From Escherichia phage BEK2, in the sequence record MN158206.1: a DNA stretch of 46,880 nucleotides, one strand, 5' to 3'. Positions 7,819 to 41,022 of the stretch are shown in pieces. The stretch's first letter is position 1, and each line of letters begins with the position of its first letter. Both the position numbers and the translations under genes were made by a program. The notes beneath the pieces are model-generated. The model had not been told where the DNA came from, did no database searches, and saw only the letters and a list, made by a program, of their open reading frames with translations.

Positions 7819-7852
7819 CGCCCTCTTCGGAGGGCTTTTTTTACGTCTGTAC
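7819..7852 (+). terminator. intrinsic terminator
   Basis: cgccctc-ttcg-gagggc + T7. Confidence 0.7.
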
Positions 7853-14520: not shown

Positions 14521-14550
14521 TTAATGGGGCTTCTGCCCCTAGGGATTTTT

Positions 14551-21714: not shown

Positions 21715-21757
21715 ATAGTATCGCATCCTTGCGATCAGTGTTTAGCAATTAGTGCTA
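21715..21757 (-). promoter_or_regulatory. composite early-type promoter (box + -10 TACTAT)
   Basis: box 21743-21757 (minus sense TAGCACTAATTGCTA), -10 at 21715-21720, leader 'ctccATCGAAACGAAAT'. Confidence 0.55.
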
Positions 21758-23978: not shown

Positions 23979-24944
23979 ATGAGCTTTAAGGTTTTTACAA
24001 GGGAGGAACTATCAAACTCGGAGTACCACGCTGAAACTGAACACATCTCAGGTTCCTCACTTGTCGAGATTATTCAGGGTTCACCAGCCAAGTGGAGGTT
24101 TAAGCAACGCAATAGCGATAGCAAGGCTCTTAAGTTTGGAACGCTGAGTCACACGTATATCCTAGAGGGTGACATGTTTGATAAAGAATACCTTCGAGCT
24201 ACAGACCTTGATGCGATTGATGGATTAATTACAAGCCAAGCAGGATTATCAGCAGCACTTAAAAAAGTTGGTGTAGCTGGCACGTCCGGGAAGGGGTATA
24301 GCGAGCTCGTAGAAATGATGTATCGTTCTGGTGAGGATTGGCCTGTTAAATGGTTAATTGAGCAGCAGGAGGGCGCGCAGGCGCTCGTGGAGGGTAAGGA
24401 GTTGGTTAGCGCCGCAGACTATGACAAAGTGATAGCTATGCGTGAGGTTCTTTGCAACATTCCGGAATATGATGCAATTGTGAACAGCGAGACGGCGCAG
24501 AAAGAGTTATCAATATTCGGTGAGATTCTAGGTGTTGGAGTTAAGATTCGAATCGACCACGTAGATGTTATTGATGGTGTGGTTCGGATCACAGATTATA
24601 AAACGACAGCGGACGCAAGCCCAGAAGGATTTGGTAAATCAGCATTCAATCACGGATACCTTGCAAAAATGGCATTACAGCGTGATCTATTTGTTAAGGC
24701 ATTCAACGAGAAGCGCAAGGTTGTTGTAGGATTGCTGGCACAGGAGAAGGTGGAGCCATACTTACCAATGCTGTACACCTTAACTGACGAACAGCTTCGA
24801 ATCGGTAGGTTGCAGTATCTTGAGGCGCTGGCTACTTACAAGAAGTGTAAGGAGCTAGATAGCTGGCCAGGGTACTCTAATGGCATTACAGAGCAAGAGC
24901 TATTAGTTCCTGAGTGGGCATTAAAACAATATAAAGAAATCTAA
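23979..24944 (+). CDS. PD-(D/E)xK family exonuclease (recombination nuclease)
   Basis: 'VKIRIDHVDVIDGVVRITDYKT' D..D.K nuclease motif; upstream of Erf. Confidence 0.65.
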   Translation: MSFKVFTREELSNSEYHAETEHISGSSLVEIIQGSPAKWRFKQRNSDSKALKFGTLSHTYILEGDMFDKEYLRATDLDAIDGLITSQAGLSAALKKVGVAGTSGKGYSELVEMMYRSGEDWPVKWLIEQQEGAQALVEGKELVSAADYDKVIAMREVLCNIPEYDAIVNSETAQKELSIFGEILGVGVKIRIDHVDVIDGVVRITDYKTTADASPEGFGKSAFNHGYLAKMALQRDLFVKAFNEKRKVVVGLLAQEKVEPYLPMLYTLTDEQLRIGRLQYLEALATYKKCKELDSWPGYSNGITEQELLVPEWALKQYKEI

Positions 24945-24945
24945 A

Positions 24946-24988
24946 TAGCACGAATTGCTAAAACAAGGTGGGATAGCTGAGGTATAGT
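24946..24988 (+). promoter_or_regulatory. composite early-type promoter (TAGCACGAATTGCTA + -10 TATAGT)
   Basis: box 24946-24960, -10 24983-24988. Confidence 0.6.
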
Positions 24989-25020
24989 TATACCATCAAC
25001 AACGGACGAGGTTAAAGAAA

Positions 25021-25200
25021 GTGAGAATATTTGAAAGTAAAAGCTGTAGCGACATTGAGATATTCGTTAATGAAAATGATGGATTAATTCAAACAATAGA
25101 CATATACCAAGATGGAGATGTTGTCGTTATAAGTGAAAAATGTAAGGCGATAGAGATTGCAGAATATATTTTAAAAATTTCAGAATACCTTGAGGACTGA
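25021..25200 (+). CDS. hypothetical small protein (59 aa, below track threshold)
   Basis: GTG start with GAGG RBS; ends 1 nt before erf ATG. Confidence 0.3.
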   Translation: MRIFESKSCSDIEIFVNENDGLIQTIDIYQDGDVVVISEKCKAIEIAEYILKISEYLED

Positions 25201-25201
25201 C

Positions 25202-25852
25202 ATGCAAATTTCAGAATCATGCAAATCAATTTTAAAGGCGCTTCACACTGCAAAGGCTATGTTTGCAAAAGCGGAAAAAACAAAGTGTAACAATCACCTA
25301 AATAATAGATATGCAACTTTAGAAGACGTACTAGCGGCTGTTGAGCCTGGTTTAGATGAGTGCGGGTTGGTGATGTTCCAGAGTGTTCTTGATGATGAAC
25401 AAACGAATCGTATGAAGGTTGAAACTAAGTTGTTTCATGCAGAATCTGGAGAGTGGGTCAGCTTCTTAATGATTGTCCCAATCAGTAAGAATGATGCACA
25501 AGGTTATGGCTCAGCTTTAACATACGCTAGACGTTACGGAATCACGGCTGCCCTTGGTCTTAGCCAGGCAGATGATGATGGAAATCTGGCGGCTAAGGGA
25601 GTTAAAGACTTTAAACGAGAACTCGAGAAATGCAACACTCTTGATGAGCTTCGTAGTGTATGGAAGGAGGCCAAACAATCACTTGATGCGGCAGGATGGA
25701 AGGTTTTTGAACCTCACATTATCGAGCGAAAAGCAGAGATAGAGGCTAATGCAGCAACTGGCTTCAACCCAGCCACACCTAAGAAAGTTGCAGAAAAAAG
25801 TAGTGATAAAGAAAAGAATGAAGTAGAATCACAACAAATCGACACATTCTAA
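25202..25852 (+). CDS. erf: ERF-family single-strand annealing protein
   Basis: 'RYATLEDVLAAV' and 'GSALTYARRYGI' ERF signature. Confidence 0.8.
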   Translation: MQISESCKSILKALHTAKAMFAKAEKTKCNNHLNNRYATLEDVLAAVEPGLDECGLVMFQSVLDDEQTNRMKVETKLFHAESGEWVSFLMIVPISKNDAQGYGSALTYARRYGITAALGLSQADDDGNLAAKGVKDFKRELEKCNTLDELRSVWKEAKQSLDAAGWKVFEPHIIERKAEIEANAATGFNPATPKKVAEKSSDKEKNEVESQQIDTF

Positions 25853-25893
25853 TTTAATAGGGGCCTCGGCCCCAACAAACAGAGAGATAAAAT

Positions 25894-26319
25894 ATGCACG
25901 TAATTACTGGTCAGATTCGCCGCGCTCCATTCACTAAAGAAGGTCAAAACGCCAATGGTAACTGGAAAATGTTCGCGGTTGATTTGAGTGAGCGATACAA
26001 AGATAAAGATGGTCAATCGCAATATACGAATTACAGAGCCGTCTTCTTCGCTAAAGAATCCATGTTAGACTGGTATAATGAAGCATTTCAAGAGGGTAAG
26101 ATTGTTAGTGTTAGCTCTGAAAGCCTGGCTGTTGATGTTCGTGATAAAGATAGCAAGACTTACGTAACTGTTAACATGAACAATCCTCGTCTTGAGTTTA
26201 GCCAGCGTGGCGATACAGCACCACAACAGCATGGGCAAAAGCAACAACAGAAAACTCAGCAACAGCAGCGTCAGCAACCTCAGCAACAACAACAGGTTGA
26301 AGACGATATTCCCTTCTGA
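25894..26319 (+). CDS. ssb: single-stranded DNA-binding protein
   Basis: OB-fold N-terminus, Gln-rich linker, acidic tip '...VEDDIPF' like E. coli SSB 'DDDIPF'. Confidence 0.85.
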   Translation: MHVITGQIRRAPFTKEGQNANGNWKMFAVDLSERYKDKDGQSQYTNYRAVFFAKESMLDWYNEAFQEGKIVSVSSESLAVDVRDKDSKTYVTVNMNNPRLEFSQRGDTAPQQHGQKQQQKTQQQQRQQPQQQQQVEDDIPF

Positions 26320-26350
26320 TAAAAGATAAAGCCACTTTCTGATTTTGATA

Positions 26351-26374
26351 AAAAGGAGCCTTACGGCTCCTTTT
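26351..26374. terminator. bidirectional terminator
   Basis: aaaaaggagcc-ttac-ggctcctttt. Confidence 0.65.
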
Positions 26375-26379
26375 ATTAC

Positions 26380-27588
26380 TTAAACACCAGTCAGTCTAGA
26401 TAACTCCCTACGTAGAAGCGCGCACTCTAGAGCGAGGCACTCCTCCATTCGAACCATCCATATTTCTCCAGCATCCTTACTTTCATCGGCATCCCATTTT
26501 TCGTGAATAAGTATTCCGTAATCACATGCGTCCAGACCTGCTTTAAGGAACTTGTCTCTGATGTCTTGAGCAATTACACCAATGTGTAGACGAGCTTCAT
26601 TGTCTCCCTTCTCAGAAACTGCCCTCTTCATTTTCCACTGCTTGTAATTTACTGTACTCCAGGCATCAAGAACTTCGTCAGGAATATCACCTATAAAAAC
26701 CTTGTGGTTTTCATCGGAAACAACTGTAGGTGCGTTCTGAAAATACGCATTGTTATATGTCAGTGATGCATATCCAATGTTATGCGTCGCGGTAACGTCA
26801 GGTGCAAGTGTTCTTGTTCTAAGTATTCCCGACACATTACCTCCTCCGAAGTTTACAGCAGCAGTAGTATTTAGCTCTGCACCACTTACGAACTCCTGAA
26901 TCCAGGGGCCTACCGAAGATGAGGATATTTGTCGACGCCACCCCGTCTGCGATGCGCCATTAGTTCGCAATGTTTGTATGGTGTCGTTATTACCTATAAG
27001 GTACTCAACATCCATAATTGATGCACCAGTGCCTCTAGTTGGTACATCTGTGAACACAGAGAATACGGAGCCTGGAATGTAATATCGACCTGGTGTTTTT
27101 ATGTTAGACAGAAGGTTTCCGTTTGATGATGCACTAGAAGCCGTCATGAACTCGATCAATCCAAACTGAAAAACTTTATGCCAACCAGAATCCACGTAAT
27201 TAGCAGCGGCAGATCTATTTATGTGACGTGACCAAAGACCGTTTTCGTTCTGGTAAAAAAAAGAAATCTTATTGTTAGCCTCAAGTGAAGCGTAAACAGT
27301 TAGACGACCAGAAAGTCGTGCGCCGTTGGTTAGAGAAGGCATATCAAATTCTGTGTTTACACTCTGTGCAATCTCCGTCATAAATATGGCGTTATTTGGC
27401 ATTCTGGTAGCAATCAGAGACACAGTCGCTTCATCTGCGGTAATACCTAGTTCAGCAAGTTTAGTCAGAGTCATTACACCGGACTGGTCGTTGAGTCTAC
27501 CTATCTGAGACTCTATCATCATTAAGGCTTCGTCGAGGGAGTCTTTATTGGCAGTAAGAATGTTGGCATCGAGGGTTAATTTTTCCAT
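26380..27588 (-). CDS. tail fiber protein, possible C-terminal intramolecular chaperone domain
   Basis: Gly/Ser/Thr/Asn-rich body; C-terminus 'ARLHIGVIAQDIRDKFLKAGLD...YGILIHEKW' resembles auto-chaperone domains; low certainty. Confidence 0.45.
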   Translation of the reverse strand: MEKLTLDANILTANKDSLDEALMMIESQIGRLNDQSGVMTLTKLAELGITADEATVSLIATRMPNNAIFMTEIAQSVNTEFDMPSLTNGARLSGRLTVYASLEANNKISFFYQNENGLWSRHINRSAAANYVDSGWHKVFQFGLIEFMTASSASSNGNLLSNIKTPGRYYIPGSVFSVFTDVPTRGTGASIMDVEYLIGNNDTIQTLRTNGASQTGWRRQISSSSVGPWIQEFVSGAELNTTAAVNFGGGNVSGILRTRTLAPDVTATHNIGYASLTYNNAYFQNAPTVVSDENHKVFIGDIPDEVLDAWSTVNYKQWKMKRAVSEKGDNEARLHIGVIAQDIRDKFLKAGLDACDYGILIHEKWDADESKDAGEIWMVRMEECLALECALLRRELSRLTGV

Positions 27589-40968: not shown

Positions 40969-41022
40969 ATCTATACCATCGTTTGGTTTGTGCCGGATGT
41001 CGTCCGGCGGCGATATAATTTA

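Follow-up and report, generated by a model that had tools for sequence, protein, structure and literature searches.

A conserved hairpin without a U-tract follows erf in Drexlerviridae phages and may protect the 3' end of the upstream message

The short spacer that separates erf from ssb in Escherichia phage BEK2 carries a GC-rich hairpin whose pairing is conserved, with compensatory change, across the Drexlerviridae. Its stabilizing features are specific to the sense strand, it is not followed by a U-tract in this phage, it accompanies erf when a further gene intervenes ahead of ssb, and it does not lie at the boundary of the transcription unit. The role that we favour, at slightly less than an even chance, is that of an intercistronic 3'-end protective hairpin for the erf-side message, with read-through of transcription to ssb. 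Among known elements it would best be filed with the intercistronic protective hairpins already recognized in enterobacterial operons. In the phage records and papers examined, the hairpin is apparently undescribed so far, and it constitutes an unannotated, family-wide RNA element in a group of phages that are widely used as models and in therapy.

The window (the whole stretch of 46,880 nucleotides that was analysed) is 100% identical over positions 24900-26400 to Escherichia phage BEK3 (MN158207.1; window coordinates equal record coordinates minus 3), an Rtp-like member of the Braunvirinae within the Drexlerviridae that is related to T1. The erf gene (25202-25852, plus strand) encodes an ERF-family single-strand annealing protein (Pfam PF04404, 93.5 bits), whose counterpart in MN158207.1 is annotated as 'recombinase'. 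It is followed by ssb (25894-26319, plus strand), which encodes a T1 gp27-type single-strand DNA-binding protein (PHROG 44, E=1.4e-27), so that the two genes are indeed the co-oriented neighbours that an earlier reading of the sequence alone had proposed. The ssb product yields no SSB match in Pfam and is matched only by PHROG 44; its homologues are annotated as SSB, and its C-terminus is the SSB tail DDIPF. A glutamine-rich, low-complexity linker (QQHGQKQQQKTQQQQRQQPQQQQQ; window positions 26210-26300, approximately codons 106-135 of ssb) precedes this acidic tail. The ssb gene is the final member of an orf25021-erf-ssb unit.

From the end of erf onwards, the DNA reads ACA TTC TAA (the erf stop codon, 25850-25852), TTTAATA, GGGGC CTCG GCCCC, AACAAACAGAGAGATAAAAT and finally ATG CAC. 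In RNA form, a 7-nucleotide A/U-rich spacer (UUUAAUA, 25853-25859, plus strand) leads from the stop codon to the hairpin (25860-25873, plus strand), which is composed of the 5' arm GGGGC (25860-25864), the loop CUCG (25865-25868) and the 3' arm GCCCC (25869-25873). The ssb leader that follows (AACAAACAGAGAGAUAAAAU, 25874-25893, plus strand) is U-poor and rich in purines and A, has no U-tract, and includes a Shine-Dalgarno-like GAGAGA at 25882-25887. The hairpin begins 7 nucleotides past the erf stop codon and ends 20 nucleotides ahead of the ssb ATG. The sequence-only reading had reported a GC stem-loop between the two genes at 25855-25885, and the palindrome does fall inside this interval. 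However, the 6-bp stem given for it would force a sterically impossible loop of 2 nucleotides, and ViennaRNA instead yields five G-C pairs with the 4-nucleotide loop CUCG, worth approximately -10.8 kcal/mol for the hairpin alone.

A structure of this stability is not a product of chance. Only 3 of 5,000 shuffles of the 41-nucleotide spacer match -10.8 kcal/mol, and roughly 1.3% of random 41-nucleotide windows of the genome reach this value. Hairpins of -9.5 kcal/mol or lower number 20 in the window versus 3.1 +/- 1.8 in dinucleotide shuffles, and the exact pattern GGGGCNNNNGCCCC occurs twice where 0 occurrences are expected. An Rfam search over 25000-26800 returned nothing overlapping 25853-25893, even at E<=10.

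Conservation was evaluated by collecting the spacers downstream of erf from 23 GenBank relatives and from 79 IMG/VR loci identified via the Erf profile, for a total of 102 loci and 73 unique spacers. A perfect, strong hairpin (median -12.3 kcal/mol) is present in 65 of these 73, with representatives in the Braunvirinae, Rogunavirinae, Nouzillyvirus, Tunavirinae (T1), Tempevirinae and Webervirus, and about six additional spacers, such as those of JeanPiccard and AHP24, carry it with one mismatched pair. The 5ʹ-flanking stretch between the erf stop codon and the hairpin usually reads (A)UU(U)AAC in the relatives. The stem at this position comes in at least five different sequences, according to clade: GGGGC/GCCCC in the Braunvirinae, Rogunavirinae and Nouzillyvirus, GGGCGGC/GUCGCCC in T1 and its kin, GGGGCG/CGCCCC in Warwickvirus-like phages and other Tempevirinae, GGGCGG/CCGCCC in Webervirus, and CGGGGCG/CGCCCCG in Tlsvirus. 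When 18 distinct 14-nucleotide cores were aligned on their loops, two-sided changes were found at four of the five innermost pairs (23 cells), and the covariation score across these cores was 0.74, compared with 0.18 in shuffles and no more than 0.27 in slid registers. The loop-anchored alignment was built from detected hairpins, which makes its 100% pairing circular; independent support comes from an alignment-free test, in which 64 of the 65 hairpins were better than 99% of the shuffles of their own spacers. MAFFT followed by RNAalifold produced no consensus structure for 31 diverse spacers, because the sequence alignment mis-registered the differing stem classes. These comparisons indicate that the structure of the hairpin is under selection. 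Outside of the Drexlerviridae, erf and ssb are neighbours in the phages KE12, K34PH164 and sortkaff, where the gap between them is 2-12 nucleotides and holds no hairpin.

Several records labelled 'Campylobacter phage', including MG065688.1, and the record PP134917.1 for 'Pseudomonas phage PsgS01F' share 84-85% DNA identity with the window across erf-ssb. The Campylobacter and Pseudomonas host labels look doubtful, or these records may be contaminants.

The two strands of the hairpin are not equivalent. Read on the plus strand, 45 of the 65 loops belong to extra-stable tetraloop families (UNCG 19, GNRA 21, CUUG 5), versus 0 of 65 with UNCG, GNRA or CUUG loops when the minus strand is read. Moreover, 11 of the 65 stems, including those of the whole T1 clade, contain G·U pairs on the plus strand that become A·C mismatches on the minus strand. 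Elsewhere in the window, hairpins with UUCG loops likewise follow the local genes, with TTCG in plus-strand blocks and CGAA in minus-strand blocks. With stable loops and G·U pairs confined to the plus strand, the element works as sense-strand mRNA.

The hairpin keeps a near-constant distance of 5-8 nucleotides from the upstream stop codon in all 65 spacers that carry it, and its distance to the next ATG spans 7-26 nucleotides. In C119, in the IMG/VR locus L047 and in IME542, an extra gene for a protein of 164-179 amino acids lies between the hairpin and ssb (C119 = L014, 641-1135; L047, 1890-2393; IME542 = L009, 667-1206). In each of these variants the hairpin is still located 7 nucleotides past erf, and no new GC hairpin has arisen before ssb. 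Because the stop distance is nearly constant and the insertion variants retain the hairpin at erf, the element belongs to the 3' end of this gene. In C119 the inserted gene bears the annotation HNH endonuclease, and in two cases it abuts or overlaps ssb. This presence/absence polymorphism, placed precisely at the junction of hairpin and ssb, has the look of a homing-endonuclease insertion site. Such natural insertions mark the position directly past the hairpin as one that tolerates added genes, which could be of use in phage engineering.

The relation of the hairpin to transcription termination was examined with the features that define intrinsic terminators. A GC-rich hairpin is present (five G-C pairs, approximately -10.8 kcal/mol), whereas a U-tract is not: the tail, AACAAACAGAGAGA, has no U in the 14 nucleotides after the stem, as the sequence-only reading had correctly noted in reporting the absence of a T tract, and a terminator scan made no call at the hairpin on either strand. 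For intrinsic termination, E. coli RNA polymerase requires at least three U residues adjoining the hairpin, and typically 7-9 U-rich nucleotides are involved (PMC3993855). At hairpins that lack U residues, no termination was observed even in the presence of both NusA and NusG (PMC3993855). Nor does the hairpin occupy the end of a unit, given that ssb starts 20 nucleotides on and the real terminator is found at 26351-26374. This bidirectional terminator (aaaaggagcc-UUAC-ggcuccuuuu) has a 10-bp stem with A-run and T-run flanks and occupies the gap where ssb and the tail-fibre genes converge, forming the 3' boundary of the orf25021-erf-ssb unit. Rfam matches at this site are weak and sub-threshold, and are just terminator-like. 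Likewise, the annotations of T1, AHP24 and TLS place terminators after ssb but leave the interval from the recombinase gene to ssb free of them.

Some ten intrinsic terminators in the same genome provide a direct comparison. They resemble the erf-ssb hairpin in being GC-rich, often with a UUCG loop, and in following a stop codon by a few nucleotides; canonical examples near 7820, 36071, 46812, 3133 and 14905 have 4-8 T residues each. In contrast, the erf-ssb hairpin has no U-tract, lies away from the boundary of its unit, and has neither a repeat nor a promoter adjoining it. The repeat in question is a 19-nucleotide direct repeat (ATAGCACNNNTTGNTAAAA) that is present in 18 copies in the window versus 0.22 expected, for example at 504, 2649, 10502, 24945, 33441, 43319 and 44852 on the plus strand and at 21740, 22486, 23278, 37525, 39955 and 41326 on the minus strand. 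Most copies share the strand of the genes beside them, several are located next to terminator hairpins, and many of the canonical terminators adjoin a copy. A matching 21-nucleotide repeat in phage TLS has been proposed to be a promoter, enhancer or operator (PMC11447400). The copy at 24945-24963 (ATAGCACgaaTTGcTAAAA, plus strand) lies upstream of orf25021-erf-ssb and likely marks the 5' boundary of the unit; the erf-ssb spacer contains no copy.

On the plus strand, no promoter-like site was called between 23743 and 27491. A promoter for ssb within the 3' end of erf was considered and rejected, there being no plus-strand call and the 'RpoD-independent promoter' at this place in the T1 record being a software prediction only. 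As judged from these signals, the hairpin lies inside one transcription unit rather than at its boundary. Because the hairpin has no U-tract and no promoter-like site is found in the 20 nucleotides before ssb, host RNA polymerase is expected to read through the hairpin into this gene. The sequence-only preference for an RNA processing or stability element over a terminator stands in so far as it concerns a family-wide, plus-strand RNA element that lacks a U-tract and is followed 20 nucleotides on by ssb with no intervening promoter-like site; as for 'processing or stability' itself, this is a function that we infer. Hairpin-only matches in Drexlerviridae should not be annotated as terminators.

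Not all relatives lack U residues after the stem. The first 6 nucleotides past the stem contain no more than one T in 43 of the 65 unique spacers and at least four in 11 (approximately 17%), as exemplified by GGGGCG-CUUG-CGCCCC-UUUUGUCAU of Warwickvirus-like phages, in which the next 6 nucleotides read UUUUGU. These U-bearing forms of sister lineages look like canonical terminators, which by their placement would necessarily be leaky. In the Warwickvirus-like phages with the U-run, only 19-22 nucleotides separate the hairpin from the ssb ATG, a distance with no room for a promoter, so that expression of ssb must depend on read-through even there. A tight stop to transcription is therefore possible in no lineage. 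Because about 17% of the relatives carry a U-run after the same hairpin, the element is evolutionarily continuous with terminators, and the orthologous U-less and U-bearing hairpins might serve as a natural series for the interconversion of terminators and decay barriers.

A role in forming and protecting the 3' end of the erf-side message is favoured because it would explain both the U-less and the U-bearing forms. The hairpin would block the 3'-to-5' exonucleases PNPase and RNase II. An endonucleolytic cut farther downstream, or decay that begins from the distal terminator, would be followed by trimming back to the stem, which would leave the message for the upstream recombination genes shielded at its 3' end. 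In consequence, the lifetimes of the erf and ssb segments could differ, as in differential operon decay of the malE-malF type. In sister lineages with a U-run, the same erf 3' end would be formed by partial termination. Read-through, the exonuclease block and the effects on half-life are what we infer, and the arrangement predicts that the recombination module is tuned at the post-transcriptional level. A literature search for transcriptome, RNA-end or half-life data from Drexlerviridae found none, and the one RNA-seq paper that names the family used a T5-like phage.

Known exonuclease barriers are mostly larger than a 5-bp hairpin. Demand should be greatest for the SSB protein, and stabilizing the upstream segment is therefore not an obvious design. 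In addition, terminating ribosomes probably melt the hairpin transiently, because it begins only 7 nucleotides past the stop codon. Cleavage by RNase III was rejected as a function: this enzyme needs a stem much longer than 5 bp, and the stem here is far too short.

E. coli operons commonly contain internal protective 3' structures, and these are conserved (PMC5927463). The hairpin shares with malE-malF and the class described by Dar and Sorek in 2018 (PMC5927463) a conserved, stable, sense-strand stem-loop that follows a gene and lacks a U-tract and, presumably, the continuation of transcription into the next gene. It is a sense-strand stem-loop 3' of a gene in a polycistronic unit, and its structure is conserved in 65 of 73 unique spacers. 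Compared with REP-type elements, however, it is far smaller (14 nucleotides, 5 bp) and has no sequence similarity, and its protective role would be assigned by analogy. Moreover, many of the E. coli protective structures reside inside the downstream open reading frame, whereas this hairpin is in the spacer (PMC5927463).

A second precedent is provided by the intercistronic C(UUCG)G hairpins of phage T4, reportedly described by Tuerk et al. in 1988 (PNAS 85:1364). These also have short GC stems with an extra-stable tetraloop, are intercistronic, and belong to a virulent coliphage that relies on host RNA polymerase. However, the two phage families are unrelated, and the window has C(CUCG)G, whose loop is one substitution from UUCG and falls outside of the UNCG class; exactly C(UUCG)G is found in 16 of the 65 relatives. 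The function of the T4 intercistronic hairpins is itself only partly defined.

The strongest competitor to 3'-end protection, unlikely in our estimation, is a 5'-protective hairpin of the papBA type. In this arrangement, RNase E would cut in the 7-nucleotide spacer, and the processed ssb mRNA would start at the hairpin and end at 26351-26374, making ssb a long-lived and highly expressed segment. Such an outcome would suit a protein that is needed stoichiometrically and whose gene is the last before a strong terminator, and the scheme is an established one, both in papBA itself and in about 30% of decay-regulated E. coli operons (PMC5927463). As in papBA, a spacer hairpin precedes a highly expressed last gene and its terminator, with A/U-rich single-stranded RNA 5' of the stem. 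The junction between erf stop and spacer, UAA|UUU, matches the RNase E preference RN|WUU, as does the UAA|AUU of many relatives, but this motif is loose and carries very low information in A/U-rich sequence, and the cleavage site here is a putative one. A cut at UAA|UUU would also leave about 7 unpaired nucleotides 5' of the stem. Work by Emory, Bouvet and Belasco in 1992 reportedly gives grounds for regarding this as long for 5' protection. In further contrast to what papBA would lead one to expect, the hairpin tracks the upstream gene: it is not associated with the 5' end of the downstream gene in C119, L047 and IME542, and none of these three insertion variants has recreated a hairpin for ssb. 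Finally, variants with a U-tract would terminate ahead of ssb, the very gene to be stabilized.

Somewhat less probable still is that the hairpin in the window phage acts as a weak, leaky terminator or pause site that attenuates transcription of ssb and sets the erf:ssb ratio. In shape and position, with its GC stem, stable tetraloop and placement shortly past a stop codon, the hairpin matches the phage's own canonical terminators, and the 11 of 65 relatives with at least four T residues in the 6 nucleotides after the same hairpin show the form that such a terminator could take. The absence of any U in the 14 nucleotides past the stem nevertheless argues against it, given the need for at least three adjacent U residues (PMC3993855), and the phage family, TLS included, encodes neither a polymerase nor a sigma factor of its own (PMC11447400). 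The lack of U residues is also the prevailing state, with no more than one T in the first 6 nucleotides of 43 of 65 spacers, and a lowering of ssb relative to erf would be counter-intuitive.

A further arrangement is suggested by a second copy of the motif in the window. The sequence UAA-UUAAU-GGGGC-UUCU-GCCCC (hairpin at 14526-14539, plus strand) lies between the co-oriented tape-measure and minor tail genes and is likewise U-less. Five Rtp-like relatives carry this copy as TTAAC or TTATC followed by GGGGC-TTCG-GCCCC, nearly identical to their erf-ssb hairpin, and it is missing from two relatives that have a different upstream gene. Because the two copies are nearly identical, a dedicated factor is conceivable. 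There is a slim chance that UAA-(A)UU(U)AAY-GGGGC-N4-GCCCC is a sequence-specific punctuation signal, present twice per Rtp-like genome, at which an RNA-binding or processing factor of phage or host cuts polycistronic mRNA at stop/start junctions.

We judge a role at the level of translation to be very unlikely, whether by coupling through an unmasked ssb Shine-Dalgarno sequence, by insulation or a block to scanning, or by nucleating SSB autoregulation as in T4 gene 32. The minimum free energy fold encloses the hairpin by pairing UUCU at the end of erf with AGAG in the Shine-Dalgarno sequence of ssb, similar pairings can be drawn in T1 and MikeNSara, and the leader past the hairpin is unstructured and rich in purines and A. 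Across the family, however, pairing between the Shine-Dalgarno sequence and the 5' flank is no better than in shuffled controls (above control in 22 of 65; mean 0.26 versus 0.30), and translational coupling by Shine-Dalgarno sequestration was rejected on this basis. An operator of the T4 gene 32 type is not in evidence either: the leader measures 20 nucleotides here and just 7-26 nucleotides in relatives, the hairpin is simple, and it is parted from ssb in the insertion variants. Recoding by stop read-through or frameshifting was also dismissed, as the spacers of 40-47 nucleotides have no conserved frame, the stop codon is UAA and no slippery heptamer is present.

Finally, we regard it as next to negligible in probability that the palindrome acts in DNA, by binding a protein or by serving as a junction for recombination, or that it is a reserve terminator on the minus strand for antisense transcription coming from the tail-fibre genes: the sequence is a perfect palindrome, many relatives have GUUUAAUU as a minus-strand tail, and the ssb alleles of L012 and L013 differ 3' of an identical spacer that could be a crossover point, but these readings are largely refuted by the confinement of stable tetraloops and G·U pairs to the plus strand, by stems that differ by clade with pairing kept and loops that vary freely (unlike a protein-binding site), by a minus-strand tail in the window (UAUUAAAU) that lacks the features of a terminator, and by the strong bidirectional terminator already present at 26351-26374.

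Other hairpins in the window are of related form. A third U-less GC hairpin (GCCGGA-CGACA-UCCGGC, 40992-41008, minus strand) is located between co-oriented genes; ACAAACCAAACGAUGG separates it from the ATG, and this tail is similar to the one (AACAAACAGAG) that comes after the erf-ssb hairpin. Overall, 25 of the 41 perfect GC-rich hairpins of the window reside wholly within the 11% of it that is intergenic, and their most common loop is UUCG, which always appears in the same orientation as the surrounding genes.
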